The position numbers and the translations under genes are program-made. Shown here in pieces: positions 3,570 through 48,312 of a DNA stretch of 64,000 nucleotides. Where the stretch lies: the NCBI RefSeq assembly GCF_964213995.1, contig NW_027590136.1, positions 1,116,001 through 1,180,000 on the forward strand. The letters run 5' to 3'. Below the pieces are notes generated by a model. The model worked only from the letters and a program-made list of their open reading frames with translations, searched no databases and was not told where the DNA came from. Each line of letters begins with the position of its first letter. Position 1 is the first letter of the stretch. Source of the DNA: Mustelus asterias (taxonomy: Eukaryota).

Positions 3570-6365
3570 CCTGGGGGGCATCCCCCCCTGGATAAAGTCA
3601 CCCCCGGGGGGTGTGACATCCACTTGGGGAAAGTTCTGGGTGGTGAAGCCCCGGATATAGTAACACCAGAGGGATTTTATTCTCCGGGAGAAAAATTGGG
3701 AAGGCAGGCCCGAACTGAGTACCCTGGAGAGACTCTCCCACCGCCCCGGCTGAAATTCCGGAAGGGATTCCGGATTGAGTAGGTTCGGGGTGGTTTCCCC
3801 ATTTCCCCCCTCCGGCTGAACATCCGTAAGGTGTAACCCCCGGATATGAGTACAAGAACAAAGAACAAAGAACAATACAGCACAGGAACAGGCCCTTCGG
3901 CCCTCCAAGCCCGCGCCGCTCCCCGGTCCAGGATTGAATCCTGAATCCAGGATCCCCGCCCAATTTTCCAGCCTATCTACATACCAATATCCTATCCACC
4001 GAGCTGTCCCTCACAGCTACGATGCTTTGTTCATTACAACCTATTAACTTACCCCCACCCCCCCATTCCAGACCATGTGATCTCCAGGGAGAGGCGAAAA
4101 CCCAGAGTGAAAAACCCCAGGGCCAATATGGGGAAAAAAAATCTGGGAAATTCCTCTCCGACCCCCTGAGGCGATCGAAACGAGTCCAGGAGATCACAAT
4201 GGCCCCGATCGGAAAATGCTTCCCAACCCTAGTCATTTCCACTTCCACGAACACCATATGAATTCCCTGCCCCCGAGACAGGTTCCCAACTATCCGCAGT
4301 CTCACTCTGTACTGGCACCAGCAAGATGATCGTAGAATGAAGCCTTGAAACGAGAAACCAGGAACAATTAGCCCGCGCCGCTCCCTGGTCCAAACTAGAC
4401 CACTCTTTTGTATCCCTCCATTCCCACTCCGTTCATATAGCTGTCTAGATAAGTCTTAAATGTTCCCAGTGTGTCCGCCTCCACCACCTTGCCCGGCAAC
4501 ACATTCCAGGCCCCCACGACCCTCTGTGTGAAATATGTCCTTCTGATATCTGTGTTAAACCTCCCCCCCTTCACCTTGAACCTATGACCCCTCGTGAACG
4601 TCACCACCGACCCGGGGAAAAGCTTCCCACCGTTCACCCTATCTATGCCTTTCATAATTTTATACACCTCTATTAAGTCTCCCCTCATCCTCCGTCTTTC
4701 CAAGGAGAACAACCCCAGTTTCCCCAATCTCTCCTCATAACCAAGCCCCTCCATACCAGGCAACATCCTGGTAAACCTCCTCTGTACTCTCTCCAAAGCC
4801 TCCACGTCCTTCTGGTAGTGTGGCGACCAGAACTGGACGCAGTATTCCAAATGCGGCCGAACCAACGTTCTATACATCTGCAACATCAGACCCCAACTTT
4901 TATACTCTATGCCCCGTCCTATAAAGGCAAGCATGCCATATGCCTTCTTCACCACCTTCTCCACCTGTGACGTCACCTTCAAAGATCTGTGGACTTGCAC
5001 ACCCAGGTCCCTCTGCGTCTCTACACCCTTTATGGTTCTTCCATTTATCGTGTAGCTCCTCCCTACATTATTCCCACCAAAATGCATCACTTCGCATTTA
5101 TCAGGATTGAACTCCATCTGCCATTTCCTTGCCCAAATTTCCAGCCTATCTATATCCTTCTGTAGCCTCTGACAATGTTCCTCACTATCTGCAAGTCCTG
5201 CCAGTTTTGTGTCGTCCGCAAACTTACTGATCACCCCAGTTACTCCTTCTTCCAGATCATTTATATAAATCACAAACAGCAGAGGTCCCAATACAGAGCC
5301 CTGCGGTACACCACTAGTCACAGGCCTCCAGCCGGAAAAAGACCCTTCCACTACCACCCTCTGTCTTCTATGACCAAGCCAGTTCTCCACCCATCTAGCC
5401 ACCTCCCCCTTTATCCCATGGGATCCAACCACTGGAGGGTTGCATCCCCCGGCAGGTGGACAAACCCAGGGGACGGTGCCCTTATGCTTCAGTGTTTATT
5501 TTTTGTTGTGTATAGTTGTAGTGTTGTGTTAATGTTTGTAGATTTGTAGATTATGATTTGTAAATGGAGGTGTATTTTGAGGGCAATGCCCTGGAAAATT
5601 GTAATTGATGATGAACCCTTCCGAAATGGAAGGTAGTAATTGATAAATGGATGGTGTTAGCCATCGGTAATGTATTTTTCAGATTTGTTCTTTGTTCATT
5701 TGTAATTGTTTTGTAATATCGTGTTTGTACTAACCAACGGAAAATCTTTGCATTGTTTGTGGCCTGGGGGGTATCCCCCCCCCCCCCCCCCCCCCCTGGA
5801 TAGAGTGACCCCGGGGGGTGTGACATCCAGTTGGGGAAAGTGTCCGGGGCACCCAGAGGGGTAACACCAGGGGGGTTTTGTTCTCCGGGAGAAAAATTGG
5901 GAAGGCAGGCCGAATTGAGTATCCCGGAGAGCTTTTCCCACCGCCCCAGCCGAAAATCCGGAAGGCAGTCCGGATTGAGTAGGTTCGGGGTGGTTTTCCT
6001 GTCCCCCCGCCTCCAGTCGAACATCCGTCAGGTGGAACCCCCGGACCTGAGTACCTCTGGAGGGTTGCATCCCCGGCAGGGGAAAAACCCGGGAGGCGGT
6101 GCCCTGGAGGGCGGCGGATATGCTGCAATGTTTATTCTTGTTGTGTTGTACTAATGTTTGTCACTTTGTAGATTATGATTTGTAATTGGAGGTGTATTGA
6201 GAGGGCAATGCCCTGGAAAACTATGACCGTTAGTGAACCCTTCCGAAATAGAAGATAGTAACTGATAAATGGATGGCGTTAGCCATTGGTAATGTATTTT
6301 TTTTTACATTTGTTCTTTGTGTATTTGTAATTGTTTTGTATTAACGTATTTGTAATAAACAAAAA
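3570..6365 (+). repeat. Unclassified ~620-bp tandem unit, two diverged copies, the first split by a CR1
   Basis: 3570-3852 plus 5429-5750 aligns by eye to 5750-6360; ends in AATAAA(CAAAAAG). Confidence 0.8.
3853..5428 (-). mobile_element. Young 5'-truncated CR1 LINE with long 3' UTR
   Basis: Open 345-aa RT C-terminus ([14 protein letters not shown]) at 4395-5432; (GTTCTTT)n tail at 3853-3875. Confidence 0.95.
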
Positions 6366-13538: not shown

Positions 13539-14116
13539 TGTTTTGCCGGACCGGTAACAGGTTCGTGGAGGTGGTCTGAGAGAAAGAATTCACACTACAC
13601 CAGTATTGCTAGAATAAAATGTGTCTCTTTATTCCCCACAATACATGGACAAGTTCTACAAGTATCATTCAATGGGCTAAGCCTTATATAGTTTAACTAC
13701 CCTGACACGTGGACTGGAGAGCCGTCAGTCCAGGTAGAGTGGCTTACCTCCCGCCGGGCGTCCGTACGTAACCCACGGCAGACTCTGCTGTAGTAGGGAC
13801 TTTCCCGCATATTTATAGAGAAAAGCCTCTCTTTGTTCTGGACATCTGAATATGAGTCACTCTTGGTATCCGGCCAAGTACGTGATGTTTAGAGCAGTCT
13901 CGTGCAATACAAGTTCTATTGTTCGCAGCTCAAGAAAACAAGTTTAATGGTTAATCATTCACGCTATGTCTTGGGCACGGATCTAATTTAATTATGTTTT
14001 GACATGTTTATCCTTTCATGTGGACAGGCTGTCTCCATTGTCCGTAGCAGTTGTCAGCATACGAGATTTTGCTGACAGGGTTGAAATCGGGACATTAACT
14101 CTTTATTCTCCTAACA
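13539..14116 (-). repeat. 3' LTR
   Basis: Direct repeat of 17508-18085; one mismatch found by eye (13905 C vs 17874 T). TATAAA ~13812-13817 and AATAAA 13628-13633 on the minus strand. Confidence 0.97.
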
Positions 14117-14147
14117 TTCCACCTGTTGGACCGATTTCAATCACCAT

Positions 14148-15992
14148 TTACCTCAACGCAGTGTGATACAGGGTACTTTCCAAACCCTGTTTCACACGCC
14201 TGACATATACACAGGTAAGTACATTACAACAAGTTAAAACAGCAACAATCACAAATATCAATATCAGAGGAGGCAAAACATATCGCCGGGCCGTTTGTGA
14301 TATCCCGGTTAGCAAGTCCCACCAATGATGGGCTGATTCATTCTCTATCATTCGCGCAGCATGTACTACCTGTTCTCCGGCTATAAAGGTAGAGACCATG
14401 ACACGGGACACGTTAGACTTATGAGAGTCAATTATATGTTTTAGCTCCGTCGACTGATTCAATGCGCATTTGAACCTGTCGAGAGAGACTCGCCATGGCA
14501 TATGGAGAACTTTCCACTGAGCCGTACTCAAGCGAGATTCAGTGCTATAATTAGTCAATTTGTAAGTCTTGTTCGCCCAATGCCAAATGTACACCCCCTT
14601 CAAACACCCAGAGAACGGTATCTGCGGCAATAATGGTTGGCGGTGTATGGTGGCCACACATACAGCGTGGGGCCCAATCTGCCACAAGATATCTCGTGGT
14701 TTCTCTACTCGCCACTCACATAATGCCGTGTCATCAGTTAAACATGGATCGCGATATCTTGTCATAGTTAAACATGCCAATCCTCTGTCAGTGTCTTCAC
14801 ATGTTGACAAATCATAAGTCCAATTGTTTTTAGGACTAAACCAGTTACCATTAGTTCTCAGAAAGTAAAACCCATGCAGGGTAATTACAGGCAGTACATG
14901 GTATTTACATACAGATATTACATCTGCCACATTCATCAAGGTGTAATGTCCAGTACATGCTGTTTTGTTACAAACAGTTTTATCTGAGCGGGCTTGCACC
15001 CACAAAGTGTCCGATATGTTCCAGAGTTCTCGCAGTTCATGAGAGTTACCCGTAGTAACTATTCGGATAAACCTCTCTTGTTGCACTCGCATGTGCACTC
15101 CTTGGATGTTGCAGATAGTCATATTAAGTGCCGCCGTGATGTTATGCATAAGTTCCTGTGTCGCATTCCACATTCGCTTCTCCCAGTCCAGAGTTCGTAG
15201 CAGAATCCGTGCTGTTTCCACTTGCGTTTTCACAACCGTGGGCATCCATATTCCGACAGTATGGAGCCCGTGTGATGTCGAATATCCAGTGTCCGATAAC
15301 ATAGTTCTGGTAACTTCATTGTCAGCCGCATTAGAGATACCTAGTACTGTACCAGTCCCACCCAACAGCGTATCATACCATGCTCGCCACCTGCGGGCGC
15401 CAGAACAGGTAGGTAGCGAGGGCAGAATGACAGTCCAGTGTACCTCAGTGTGCGTGAGCTGATTCGCCATCTTTCGACAAGTATGTAGGACTGGGGCGAA
15501 TTGTGTTTGTTCTATTATAGGCTTGTTTGGTAGGAACATTATTGCATATAGGAATGTATTGCGGCCTTTTATTTCTGTACTGTTCTGGAACCATACCAAT
15601 CGAGGCCTCTCACCTGTCACAGTAATATTCCAGGTGGTGCCATTTTCCTTACTGGACATACAGGTTCTATTCCTTCTTGTTTGTATCTGGCAAAGTGGAG
15701 CTCCTGCCGTTATGGTAACCGTACAATTCATAGCAGTTGTGGGGAGAGCTTTGTTGTTGTCCAAGCATTTTTCACAACGATATAGCTTACACACACTCGT
15801 TATATTCGTGATTCCGCACATTCGATTCGCGCCACAAGTGAACTCCCCTTGAGTTCTATTATGGGTGGAGTTCTTCCATGCGAGGCGAAAACCGCCAAGC
15901 TTTTCGGTCAATTGATGACCAGGGGTCCCCTCAACCCATATCCACGAGATCAAGAGTATTCCTGCTATCAGTATCAACGTCAATCGTTCCAT
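14148..15992 (-). CDS. env: Intact retroviral envelope glycoprotein, 614 aa
   Basis: Signal peptide, Cys- and N-glycan-rich SU, RRWR cleavage site, fusion peptide AWYDTLLGGTGTVLG, Trp-rich MPER, TM helix, short tail. Splice acceptor TCTTTTACAG 12 nt upstream of the ATG. Confidence 0.92.
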   Translation of the reverse strand: MERLTLILIAGILLISWIWVEGTPGHQLTEKLGGFRLAWKNSTHNRTQGEFTCGANRMCGITNITSVCKLYRCEKCLDNNKALPTTAMNCTVTITAGAPLCQIQTRRNRTCMSSKENGTTWNITVTGERPRLVWFQNSTEIKGRNTFLYAIMFLPNKPIIEQTQFAPVLHTCRKMANQLTHTEVHWTVILPSLPTCSGARRWRAWYDTLLGGTGTVLGISNAADNEVTRTMLSDTGYSTSHGLHTVGIWMPTVVKTQVETARILLRTLDWEKRMWNATQELMHNITAALNMTICNIQGVHMRVQQERFIRIVTTGNSHELRELWNISDTLWVQARSDKTVCNKTACTGHYTLMNVADVISVCKYHVLPVITLHGFYFLRTNGNWFSPKNNWTYDLSTCEDTDRGLACLTMTRYRDPCLTDDTALCEWRVEKPRDILWQIGPHAVCVATIHRQPLLPQIPFSGCLKGVYIWHWANKTYKLTNYSTESRLSTAQWKVLHMPWRVSLDRFKCALNQSTELKHIIDSHKSNVSRVMVSTFIAGEQVVHAARMIENESAHHWWDLLTGISQTARRYVLPPLILIFVIVAVLTCCNVLTCVYVRRVKQGLESTLYHTALR

Positions 15993-16034
15993 GCTGTTTT
16001 ATTCCTGTAAAAGAGATCAATCTTCAAGACATAG

Positions 16035-17243
16035 TTAATCTTCTCGTAGATAACATTTCTTAGCAGGGACATTAACCCATTTGGGCTCACCAGGGTACAT
16101 TACCGTTACGGTTCCATCACTGCCTTGAGCAATGATTTCAGCAGCTCTGGGTGGGCCAGTTTCCTGTTTCACCCAGACTTTAGCTCCAGGTTTATCTGTT
16201 GAGCCAAAACCACCAGTTCCTCTTTCAGTCACCACCTGTGGGATACCAACTTCAACGGCCGGTGCCATCTCACAGGGTTTAATCACCAGTTGGGCGATTT
16301 TATTATTTGCAGTCACAGTATAGGGATCAGGTTTAATATTACACAGAACCACCCCAATTTCTCCTTGATAATCTGAATCAATGACTCCTGCCATAACAGT
16401 TATCCCCTTCAGGGACAATCCAGAACGGGGAAGGATGTGCCCATAAGTTCCCTTAGGGCACTGCAATCCCAATCCGGTTTTAATAACAGTAGGTGTATCT
16501 TGTGGCAGGGTCACTGTTTCTAAGGTTCTTAGATCTAAACCGGCCGAGCCAGGCGTGGCTCGCCGCGGTAATTCTGCTTTATCATCCAATTTCCACATTT
16601 TGATTGATTCTCCTTGTGGGGTTTCACATACATGGACCATTCGGTTCAAAGGCGTGACTCCCCCACCTAGCGGTCGATTATTAATTTGCTTCAATACTTG
16701 ATTTAATTTCACCTTCCAATTAGACAAATCATCAGAAGTACTAGCCTTTCGCAATGAGGTTTTCAGTATTCCATTCATTCTTTCAATTAATCCTGCTGCT
16801 TGGGGATAGTACGGAATATGGTATATCCACTCCACATGATTGTCAGTGGCCCATTGTCGGACCAGGTTTCCCGTAAAGTGGGAACCATTGTCACTATCAC
16901 TCCAAATGTTTCCATCCCACGTATCGGGATTCCAGCCGCTCCCGTCCCCCAATCTAGCTACAAATGCTTTAATTTTCACCATTTCCAATTCTCTAGGTTT
17001 TTTACGCTTCTTCCTCCGATTTATTCTGGATACATAACCCACTGCCTGGCCAGCCAGGGTTTTAAGGGCTTCTAATTCTGTTTCTAACTTTATTATTTTT
17101 TGCTTTAACAACGAATTATTACATTCCTGTTCTCCCAATTGCTGTTTCAGTTTAAGAGCATTCTGCTCGGCTTCCTGTCGTTGTTTAAACTGATTCTTCC
17201 ACGCTGTTGCACATACCCACAGTCTCCGCTGAATTCCCTCCAC
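16035..17243 (-). CDS. Gag N-terminal / integrase C-half / dUTPase fusion ORF (deletion product)
   Basis: Coiled coil and ERV-L-type gag motif [11 protein letters not shown] joined to SDNGSHF...IERMNG (D-35-E). Five dUTPase motifs ([30 protein letters not shown]) then a KVWV...AEIIA IN C-terminal domain. Confidence 0.88.
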
Positions 17244-17251
17244 GGGGGTCT

Positions 17252-17449
17252 TCAGAGGGACGGTATTTTTAACAGAGTAGATAATACTTCTCCGGGAGAT
17301 CCATCTCGGGTCTCCTCTCCCCAGTTTTCAGCGCGACCCCCTCCGTCTCGGAGGCACGCTGCAACCGGTCTCCACGATCCTTCCCATCCCGGAATGATCG
17401 CTTCCTCTCCCTTTTCCTCCTCCTGTAACTTCTTAGTTTTGCGAAACAT
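17252..17449 (-). CDS. gag: Gag extreme N-terminus (MFRKTKK...), out of frame with the downstream ORF by 1 nt
   Basis: First ATG after the PBS; overlaps the open frame of the fusion ORF over 17254-17327. Confidence 0.65.
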
Positions 17450-17486
17450 CTTTCTCCAAGAACCCCCCACCGCCAATTATCACCGT

Positions 17487-17504
17487 ATCCTGCTGACTAC
17501 GCCA
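17487..17504 (-). promoter_or_regulatory. Primer-binding site, tRNA-Ser
   Basis: TGGCGTAGTCAGCAGGAT, 3 nt from the 5' LTR; complementary to the tRNA-Ser 3' end ...ATCCTGC(C/T)GACTACGCCA. Confidence 0.9.
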
Positions 17505-17507
17505 AAA

Positions 17508-18085
17508 TGTTTTGCCGGACCGGTAACAGGTTCGTGGAGGTGGTCTGAGAGAAAGAATTCACACTACACCAGTATTGCTAGAATAAAATGTGTCTCTTTA
17601 TTCCCCACAATACATGGACAAGTTCTACAAGTATCATTCAATGGGCTAAGCCTTATATAGTTTAACTACCCTGACACGTGGACTGGAGAGCCGTCAGTCC
17701 AGGTAGAGTGGCTTACCTCCCGCCGGGCGTCCGTACGTAACCCACGGCAGACTCTGCTGTAGTAGGGACTTTCCCGCATATTTATAGAGAAAAGCCTCTC
17801 TTTGTTCTGGACATCTGAATATGAGTCACTCTTGGTATCCGGCCAAGTACGTGATGTTTAGAGCAGTCTCGTGTAATACAAGTTCTATTGTTCGCAGCTC
17901 AAGAAAACAAGTTTAATGGTTAATCATTCACGCTATGTCTTGGGCACGGATCTAATTTAATTATGTTTTGACATGTTTATCCTTTCATGTGGACAGGCTG
18001 TCTCCATTGTCCGTAGCAGTTGTCAGCATACGAGATTTTGCTGACAGGGTTGAAATCGGGACATTAACTCTTTATTCTCCTAACA
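17508..18085 (-). repeat. 5' LTR
   Basis: 578-bp direct repeat of 13539-14116, adjacent to the PBS. Confidence 0.97.
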
Positions 18086-29458: not shown

Positions 29459-29944
29459 AATGGGGAGAGAGTGTGTGGGATGGAGATTTACAGCTTTTGG
29501 GGAATGAGAGAGGAATGAATGTTCCGTAGAAATTGTCTGTTCTGAATTTCTATCCTGTACTGACACTGATGACATTTGGAAACTCATTTTACAGGATATT
29601 GAAAGAGGAATCACAGGCCGAAATCTCAAACTTCACGTCTCGATCTGACAGAGTCTTATTCCTTGGGACCTCAATATCATCGGACTTTGAATCCAGAAGG
29701 AGAAATGATTGTCCAGTCTGTCGATTTGAAAAGATTTGAAATGTCAGTGTGAGTGAAAAAGCATCAACACACTGCCACACTCGAGTGAGAGTGTTCCAAT
29801 GCACTGACTAAAGAGCTTTAACCAGTTACACAGTCTGAATAAATATCACACCATTCACAGCGGGTAGAGACTGTAATCTTGTTCTGCATGTGGACGAAAT
29901 TCAACTAATTGTCCACCCAAGAGAGAGGTAAGGACACCTGCATC

Positions 29945-30871
29945 ATGGAGAAACCATGGAAATGTGTGGACTGTGGGAAGGGATACAGAACCCCATCAGA
30001 GCTGGAAGCTCATCGGCGCAGTCACACTGGGGAGAGGCCGTTCATCTGCTCTCAGTGTGAGAAGGGATTCATTCAGTTCTCCAGCTTACAGATACACCAG
30101 CGAGTTCACACTGGGGAAAGGCCATTCACCTGCTCTCAGTGTGGGAAGGGATTCACTTGTTCATCCAACCTGCGGACACACGAACGGGTTCACACAGGGG
30201 AGAGGCCGTTCACATGCTCTCAATGTGGGAAGGGATTCACTCGATTATCCGACCTGCAGATACACCAGCGAGTTCACACTGGGGAGAAACCATTCACCTG
30301 CTCTCAATGTGGGAAGGGATTCATTCAGTTATCAGACTTGCAGAGACACCAGCGAGTTCACACTGGAGAGAGGCCGTTCACCTGTTCTCAGTGTACCAAG
30401 GGATTCGCTCGATTATCCGAACTGCGGACACACCAGCGAGTTCACACTGGGGAGAAACCATTCACCTGCTCTCAGTGTGGGAAGGGATTCACTGTGTCAT
30501 CCAACCTGCAGACACACCAGCGAGTTCACACTGGGGAGAAACCATTCACCTGCTCTCAGTGTGGGAAGGGATTCAGTCGGTCAACCCACCTGCGGACACA
30601 CCAGCGAGTTCACACAGGGGAGAGGCCATTCACCTGCTCTCAGTGTGGGAAGGGTTTCAGCGTTTCATCCCAGCTGCTGAGACACCAGCGAGCTCACACT
30701 GGGGAGAAACCATTCATCTGCTCTCAGTGTGGAAAGGGATTCACTCAGTTATCCAACCTGCGGACACACCAGAGAGTTCACACTGGGGAGAGGCCGTTCA
30801 CCTGCTCTCAGTGTGGGAAGGGATTCACTCGGTTAACCCACCTGCGGATACACCAGCAAGTTCACGAGTGA
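29945..30871 (+). CDS. Intact C2H2 zinc-finger protein, 11 fingers, 308 aa, no effector domain visible (ZNF cassette 5)
   Basis: MEKPWKC start, 11 CxxC-x12-HxxxH units with TGE(R/K)PF linkers; acceptor TTTTACAG at 29594. Confidence 0.92.
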
Positions 30872-46240: not shown

Positions 46241-46584
46241 AATGTTTGAAAGCTTAATTCTGTCACAAGTGCTGCCCATTAATCTGCCATTTGTCATTGT
46301 GTGTCATCGCTTTTTGTATCATGAATGGTTGTTAAAAGCTTTGTGTGGAGACAATTATCCCCAAAAATCCTGCAGTCCCTACTCTGCTGATGTTGTTGAA
46401 TGTCTTAGCAAGGTTGACCAAAGTAAGTTCAAGTTATGGACACATATGGCACATGGAGCAGTTGTTGGCTGGAGGAAATCTTCCAACACAATCACTACAC
46501 TGCACATCAGGTCCACCCGGTCTGATGTATTTCAAGTGTGAACCTGGCAAAGATCTTTCCCGTGATGCTATGATTGAGATATGT

Positions 46585-48312
46585 CTGTAGTTGTTGAAGA
46601 CACAAATAGTTTGCCAAATATTAACGATAGAGGGTTGGCAGCAGGAGAAATACTTAATACAATTAATGTTACCAGAGAGGCAGTGCTGGGTAGACTAATG
46701 GGACTGAAGGTGGACAAGTCCCCGGGTCCGGATGGAATGCATCCCAGGGTATTGAAAGAAATGTCAGAGGTAATAGTGGATGCGTTAGTGATTATTTATC
46801 AAAACTCGTTGCATTCTGGGGTAGTGCCGGTTGATTGGAAAACGGCTAATGTTACGCCGCTGTTTAAAAAAGGAAGGAGACAAAAGGCAGGTAACTATAA
46901 GCCGGTCAGCTTAACGTCTGTAGTAGGGAAAATGCTGGAATCCATTATTAAAGAGGAGATAGCAGGGCATCTGGATAGAAATGGTTCGATCAATCAGACG
47001 CAGCATGGATTCATGAGGGGAAAGTCGTGCTTGATGAACATGTTGGATTTTTATGAAGATGTGACTAGGGCGGTTGATGGAGGAGAACCGGTGGATGCGG
47101 TGTTTTTGGATTTCCAAAAGGCGTTTGATAAGGTGCCCCATAAAAGGCTGCTGAAGAAGATTAGGGCACACGGAGTTGGGGGTAGTGTGTTAAAGTGGAT
47201 TGGGGACTGGCTATCCGACAGGAAGCAAAGAGTCGGAATAAATGGGTGTTTTTCCGGTTGGAGGAAGGTAACTAGTGGCATGCCGCAGGGATCGGTACTC
47301 GGGCCGCAACTGTTTACCATTTATATAGATGATCTGGAGGAAGGGACGGAGTGTAGGGTAACGAAGTTTGCAGACGACACAAAGATGAGTGGAAAAGTGA
47401 ATCGTGTGGAGGACGGAGAAGATCTGCAGAGAGATTTGGACAGGCTGAGTGAGTGGGCGAGGATATGGCAAATGGAGTATAACGTTGAGAAATGCGAGGT
47501 TATACACTTTGGAGGAAATAATAACAAATGGGATTACTATCTCAATGGAAACAAATTAAAACATGCTACCGTGCAAAGGGACCTGGGGGTCCTTGTGCAT
47601 GAGACGCAAAAGCCCAGTCTGCAGGTACAACAGGTGATCAAGAAGGCAAATGGGATGTTGGCCTATATTGCGAGGGGGATAGAATATAAAAGCAGGGATG
47701 TCTTGATGCACCTGTACAGGTCATTGGTGAGGCCGCAGCTGGAATACTGTGTGCAGTATTGGTCCCCTTATATGAGGAAGGATATATTGGCATTGGAGGG
47801 AGTGCAGAGAAGGTTCACCAGGTTGATACCGGAGATGAGGGGTTTGGATTATGAGGAGAGGCTGAGGAGATTGGGTTTGTACTCGTTGGAGTTTAGAAGG
47901 ATGAGGGGGGATCTTATGGAGACTTATAAGATAATGCGGGGGCTGGATAGGGTGGAGGCGGAGAGATTCTTTCCACTTAGTAAGGAAGTTAAAACTAGAG
48001 GACACAGCCTCAAAATAAAGGGGGGTCGGTTTAAGACAGAGTTGAGGAGGAACTTCTTCTCCCAGAGGGTGGTGAATCTCTGGAATTCTCTGCCCACTGA
48101 GGTGGTGGAGGCTACCTCGCTGAATATGTTTAAAGCGCGGATGGATGGATTCCTGATCGGTAAGGGAATTAAGGGTTATGGGGATCAGGCGGGTAAGTGG
48201 TACTGATCCACGTCAGATCAGCCATGATCTTATTGAATGGCGGGGCAGGCTCGAGGGGCTAGATGGTCTACTCCTGCTCCTATTTCTTATGTTCTTATGT
48301 TCTTATGTTCTT
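46585..48312 (+). mobile_element. Young 5'-truncated CR1 with uninterrupted RT domain
   Basis: 541-aa open frame with all RT motifs; (TTCTTATG)n tail. Confidence 0.96.

Follow-up and report, generated by a model that had tools for sequence, protein, structure and literature searches.

The stretch analyzed here, called the window below, is 64,000 nucleotides (nt) of DNA from the shark Mustelus asterias (contig NW_027590136.1, positions 1,116,001 to 1,180,000). At 13539-18085, on the minus strand, it carries a 4,547-bp provirus whose two 578-bp long terminal repeats (LTRs) have TGT...ACA ends and differ from each other at one base (Table 1), as the sequence-only reading of the window had described. 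Capsid, protease, reverse transcriptase (RT) and RNase H are gone. In the 430-aa frame of the provirus Pfam detected none of the last three, and the integrase core is represented there by a fragment. The dUTPase in that frame covers positions 2-128 of the 129 in Pfam PF00692 (E 7e-34), and the integrase remnant was placed by position against the relatives P0001 and P0002. The earlier view that only env and dUTPase had been kept was too narrow, in that the 5' part of gag and the 3' half of integrase are retained as well. Its assignment to a class III, ERV-L-like, non-autonomous and multi-copy endogenous retrovirus (ERV) is supported by the domains and by the genome census below. We consider it probable that the provirus belongs to an internally deleted, non-autonomous ERV-L-type subfamily that was spread by a cognate full-length parent.

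The remaining parts of the provirus were likewise as first read. The primer binding site, assigned to tRNA-Ser, matches the tRNA-Ser(AGA) genes of the host, with 50 genomic matches and none for a reversed control, and ARAGORN called tRNA-Ser(AGA) at all three matching loci tested. The polypurine tract (PPT) lies before the 3' LTR, the predicted env splice acceptor has its pyrimidine tract and AG, env is open, and the dUTPase is complete by Pfam. The deletion junction, here J1, falls inside the interval that had been marked for it (16880-16915), and approximately 3.9 kb is missing there, as inferred from longer contigs in other organisms' runs. In the window copy the gag-integrase-dUTPase frame is broken near 17,265, so that its dUTPase is unreadable from the gag start. 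The same break occurs in a duplicate of the locus on contig C71; a second duplicate, on C110, is open.

Table 1. Parts of the provirus in the window, and locations in assembly G000 of a class I family considered in the text
Feature	Position	Strand	Description
5' LTR	17508..18085	-	578 bp; TGT...ACA ends; TATA-like and AATAAA motifs
Primer binding site	17487..17504	-	complementary to host tRNA-Ser(AGA)
5' part of gag	16887..17449	-	~187 codons; without myristoylation glycine
Deletion junction J1	16887..16896	-	10-nt microhomology; gag joined in frame to integrase core
3' half of integrase core	16581..16886	-	without zinc finger and first catalytic Asp; Pfam rve fragment 71-102 of 102
dUTPase domain	16197..16580	-	complete by Pfam; 3' of integrase core
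pol C-terminal tail and stop	16035..16196	-	conserved in fish relatives
Predicted env splice acceptor	16005..16020	-	pyrimidine tract and AG, 12 nt before env ATG
env	14148..15992	-	614 aa, open
Polypurine tract	14117..14127	-	purine-rich, precedes 3' LTR
3' LTR	13539..14116	-	578 bp
Class I family	G000:C1:193719000-193733000, C2:89306600-89320500 (L056-L059); C1:5784000-5793900, C3:113498500-113508400, C1:60776000-60785900 (L060-L062)		

All census figures come from one assembly, G000. A search with the LTR gave 53 candidates, 40 of which were scored; all are accounted for, as 46 proviral LTRs at 24 proviral loci and seven solitary LTRs (six with 5-bp duplications). The env search recovered the same 24 loci, which represent 20 distinct sites. 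Clean 5-bp target duplications are present at 14 of these sites and, together with a PPT remnant, at one more; the window locus, C36 and C56 lack the duplication, and C75 and C2 are left out of this tally. J1 is found at 13 sites, nine of which have their own distinct 5-bp duplication. A second junction, J2, occurs at four sites, all with duplications, and retains 87 nt more of gag in a 500-aa frame. J3 (more integrase, 528-aa frame) and J4 (411 gag codons, out of frame) occupy one site each. The fusion is therefore in frame at three of four junction types, both amplified ones (J1 and J2) included, and 13 of the 24 loci keep the gag-integrase-dUTPase frame (471-528 aa) intact from its gag start. 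Contig depths in run X2, which are not copy numbers, roughly agree with the census: 30 for the J4-only region (three copies), 286 for env and 590 for the LTR. The J1 deletion is thus shared by independent insertions and is not a peculiarity of one locus among full-length copies, none of which was found in G000. A single post-insertion deletion multiplied solely by DNA-level duplication does describe two trios with shared flanks (window/C110/C71 and the C10 trio); for the family it is refuted by the unrelated flanks and separate 5-bp duplications of nine J1 and four J2 sites, and we give it next to no credence. In the J3 copy (L046:612-641, on C280), 6-10 nt of PPT remnant stand between the target duplication and the 5' LTR, likely a plus-strand processing error.

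Inspection of both flanks of the window provirus revealed no target-site duplication. A C2H2 zinc-finger remnant lies on one side and a long interspersed nuclear element (LINE) on the other, and both C110 and C71 carry these flanks, 99.7-99.96% identical over 5.5-9.5 kb; the three loci are therefore one insertion. Since the LTR pairs within the C110 and C71 copies are identical, the single LTR difference in the window provides no date for the integration. Recombination between two insertions is the likeliest cause of the lost duplication; the locus would have been rearranged after integration and then duplicated together with its flanks. The window locus, L033 (C36) and L041 (C56) are all two-LTR sites without a target duplication, and all lie on small or repeat-rich contigs. 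The C36 LTRs come from two clades and have eight differences, which points to recombination between copies.

The LTRs are indeed near-identical, on which the claim of a very young element had been based. Across the 14 insertions with clean duplications, the LTR pairs differ at 30 of 7,745 sites (0.39%), and two pairs are identical. The age that follows depends on the clock: a rate assumed for sharks, 2.2e-10 per year (PMC4422223), gives 5.9-13 million years, the 7e-10 of the epaulette shark (PMC10587355) gives 1.9-3.9 million generations, and a mammalian rate gives less than 1.3 million years. Near-identical shark LTRs thus do not necessarily mean recent activity.

J2, J3 and J4 each contain sequence that the others lack. 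They cannot be derived from each other by simple deletion, and a longer source must therefore have existed and been present at least twice. In an LTR tree that is rough and whose bootstrap values are not settled, J1, J2 and J3 copies fall together in one clade (96/97) and J1 and J2 copies in another (95/94). Moreover, 3' variants are common to different junction types. Such mixing and sharing are as expected from co-packaging and recombination. Two insertions with different target duplications, C15 (J2) and C102 (J1), have the same env frameshift, which suggests that a broken env was copied.

We propose that template switching at short gag/pol homologies produced the deletions. The shortened RNAs would have retained their cis signals, been co-packaged with parental RNA and then recombined, with Gag and Pol borrowed from a full-length, env-bearing parent whose integrase would have integrated the shortened forms. 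The 3' breakpoints all lie within ~220 nt of integrase core, and for this clustering we favor a cis requirement of one of two kinds. The first would be an RNA element in 3' pol like CAS-II (cis-acting sequence II) of foamy viruses, which need such an element (PMC5035957). The second would be translation of the in-frame Gag-integrase-dUTPase fusion, as in IAP 1Δ1, which gains from in-cis translation of its fusion (PMC6466679). The four junctions serve as a natural deletion map of class III cis needs. Env and dUTPase may persist mainly by virtue of their position 3' of the breakpoints and the little mutation accrued. A precedent for deleted class III copies is offered by XtERV-S, with 19 (PMC8278194).

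Queries with capsid, integrase and full pol returned no full-length or pol-bearing copy from G000; every match was either a copy already in the census or a distant relic. Family sequence extends beyond this genome: 11 of 24 listed runs, under six organism codes, hold at least half of the words of the internal region, and four runs with family sequence were aligned to the J4 copy. In run X7, from another organism, a single 7,433-nt contig (record 20) matches both sides of J4, with 62 differences from the J4 copy in 4,191 bases (98.5% identity) and 3,227 nt between the matched sides. The gap expected at J4 is ~3,190 nt, judged by the lengths of a gag relative from fish (601 aa) and of a pol relative (1,156 aa); X5 records 14 and 15 have 3,257 unmatched nt. 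X8 record 29 extends 130 nt beyond the J4 gag break, and the capsid-region contig of X2 passes unbranched through J4. Record 20 of X7 runs from gag to the end of env in one piece; an undeleted, env-covering form is thus seen in another organism's run. We infer that the parent was later lost, or lies outside the assembly examined. Near-identity across organism codes may reflect inheritance or cross-species spread.

The sequence-only reading had suggested a bipartite system. In such a system a pol-bearing partner without a working env would draw Env, and perhaps dUTPase, from the deleted element, and neither could do without the other. A full 614-aa env frame is preserved at 18 of 24 loci and 14 of 20 sites (broken at five of 20), all four junctions spare dUTPase and env, and an X5 contig that reaches upstream of integrase has frame-breaking env indels, all as such a division of labor would have it. 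However, no env-less, pol-bearing partner is present among the 53 LTR candidates of G000, and searches of that assembly for a cognate capsid, integrase or RT came up empty. Moreover, the capsid-region contig of X2 passes through J4 without branching, record 20 of X7 spans gag to the end of env as a single contig, and a broken env is common to two insertions. No selection on env or dUTPase was detected among family copies: private env changes (14 synonymous, 51 nonsynonymous) have a ratio of nonsynonymous to synonymous polymorphism (pN/pS) of 1.08 and look neutral, and shared changes (4 synonymous, 8 nonsynonymous) have a ratio of 0.59 (P 0.29). We therefore consider it unlikely that this shark lineage split into mutually dependent satellites with env and dUTPase and pol-bearing copies with broken env. 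If it had, the two genomes would jointly sustain the spread, among related hosts, of an ERV-L-type virus that has an F-like envelope.

The open env frames could also be kept by a benefit to the host, such as receptor interference, as with the Fv4-type genes. The full-length frames in most loci would fit, as would the gene models that NCBI places on seven near-identical Mustelus asterias env proteins. The near-unity pN/pS of private changes and the sites with broken env do not; moreover, the gag-integrase-dUTPase frame decays too and no single conserved locus was identified. Host benefit is in our judgment quite improbable.

A helper need not be cognate. One candidate is a class I family in this genome that is young and shares the tRNA-Ser primer site (Table 1). 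Its gag (465 aa), pol (1,230 aa) and env are open, its LTRs are 99.8-100% identical, and the 1,230-aa frame occurs at ~15 loci. However, four of five copies examined have 4-bp target duplications, as against 5 bp for the class III element, and this difference in length largely refutes the proposal. In addition, the family has no blastn match to the class III element, its integrase is only 43-45% identical, and cognate sequence was the repeated source of new junctions and LTR types. Mobilization by this family is thus very unlikely. It has its own multi-copy deleted forms, which retain 5' gag, 3' integrase and env; the architecture is the same and the origin independent.

Several observations weigh against a subfamily spread by a cognate parent. 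The helper was not found in G000, mobilization being deduced from its products, and an RT search of that assembly, for which a stricter first look was used, found no cognate RT. From size and position, the additional ~3.2 kb of the X7 and X5 contigs would correspond to the missing gag-pol genes. X5 record 14, which continues 1,722 nt upstream of integrase, is the contig with the frame-breaking env indels. A second, central copy of the PPT was not found, the best look-alike matching at 9 of 11 positions. Three in-frame junctions out of four could arise by chance (P 0.11), and the frameshift common to C15 and C102 could reflect gene conversion or recurrent mutation instead of copying. Finally, the shared env changes are too few for excluding weak selection, and env is still open at those 14 sites.

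ERV-L is named for its leucine primer. An ERV-L-like placement of the shark element is supported by sequence features: the TGT...ACA ends, the 5-bp duplication, the dUTPase after integrase and an ERV-L-type gag without a myristoylation signal. Over 411 aa, the gag of the C10 copies, which is longer, has 35% identity to a fish protein of 601 aa that NCBI names Fv1-like. Fish relatives with a full RT-RNase H-integrase-dUTPase order are 60-67% identical; the integrase-dUTPase relatives are ERV-L-like, and those at 49-63% carry YIDD, the element's own RT being deleted. An RT with YIDD that clusters in class III is a class III trait, and an RT that is sister to all other retroviruses a lokiretrovirus one. 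A primate record (P0011) contains an ERV-like stretch with 41% integrase-dUTPase identity. With mammalian ERV-L and MERV-L the element shares the dUTPase position, 5-bp duplication and Fv1-like gag; unlike ERV-L, which has no env, it encodes a 614-aa Env and is thus not ERV-L proper (PMC8278194).

That Env has a signal peptide, a furin-type site at 200-203, an anchor near 568-595 and a long, cysteine-rich transmembrane-subunit ectodomain. It contains no CX6CC, and its sole CXXC is CEKC. Its fold is predicted to be F-like, resembling the fusion proteins of foamy viruses and paramyxoviruses; no sequence-level match to any solved structure was found. Foamy viruses and lokiretroviruses have an F-like Env, a class I fusogen with relatives in the F proteins of paramyxoviruses and pneumoviruses (PMC11468914, PMC7947760). 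Foamy Env has a long leader peptide and the shark Env an N-terminal signal-type hydrophobic stretch; foamy viruses also lack the dUTPase (PMC8278194). Env relatives at 44-60% identity occur in several sharks and teleosts. Old env relics with stops, 23-24% identical (G000:C8:13381449, C6:36761799 and C75:13142702), mark earlier invasions by the same Env type.

The closest described element is XtERV-S, a class III ERV of Xenopus tropicalis, which shares the ERV-L-like gag-pol, the dUTPase after integrase, a tRNA-Ser(AGA/TGA) primer, TGT...ACA ends, the 5-bp duplication, the lack of a myristoylation signal, an env and many deleted copies (PMC8278194). Its env is gamma-type, with CWIC and an immunosuppressive domain, in contrast to the predicted F-like Env without CX6CC, and membership in XtERV-S was rejected on this ground. 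Moreover, deleted XtERV-S copies usually retain only leader, 5' gag and PPT, and their full-length parent is present in the frog genome (PMC8278194), whereas that of the shark element was not found in G000. We found no description of an ERV-L-type lineage with an F-like Env in the literature searched, which yielded at most general and frog papers, supplements and repeat databases being outside the search; the accessible parts of PMC10435555, PMC6001957, PMC13524379 and PMC13709493 do not describe it. This lineage, with ERV-L-type gag-pol-dUTPase and a predicted F-like open Env, is the better lead, and may represent an enveloped ancestor of ERV-L, which has no env.

A life cycle of deletion and helper dependence is already known from class II ERVs of mouse and cattle. 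Mouse IAP 1Δ1 likewise has an internal deletion that yields an in-frame gag-pol fusion, is mobilized in trans and can dominate new insertions; it is class II, env-less and intracellular, unlike the shark element, and the cis effect of its fusion was shown experimentally (PMC6466679), whereas such an effect of the shark fusion is a proposal. Among cattle ERVK[2-1-LTR] elements, defective D-type forms outnumber and may displace competent ones, a pattern that fits the parent's absence from G000. These D-types differ in being class II, without intact genes, and in having competent copies still segregating (PMC10924933). A class III case in a shark, with defective forms that seem to have outlasted their parent, is in keeping with the "parasite-of-parasite" demise proposed for ERV families.

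A 728-aa protein, P0008, can be read as class III gag that continues in frame into the RNase H end, integrase and dUTPase; its integrase-dUTPase is 47% identical to that of the shark element, and a similar deletion seems to have arisen there independently. Open frames at G000:C20:45408865-45411258 (1,314 aa) and C17:17458835-17461294 (1,151 aa), 28-29% identical to class III pol, belong to distant retroviral or LTR-element families. A tandem array at G000:C71:1893724-2277060 contains at least 46 tRNA-Ser-like matches at ~2.9-kb spacing. Elsewhere in the window, an open C2H2 zinc-finger array of 10 fingers lies on the plus strand at 29909-30871, and LINE RT frames are found at 4395-5495 and 46578-48206.

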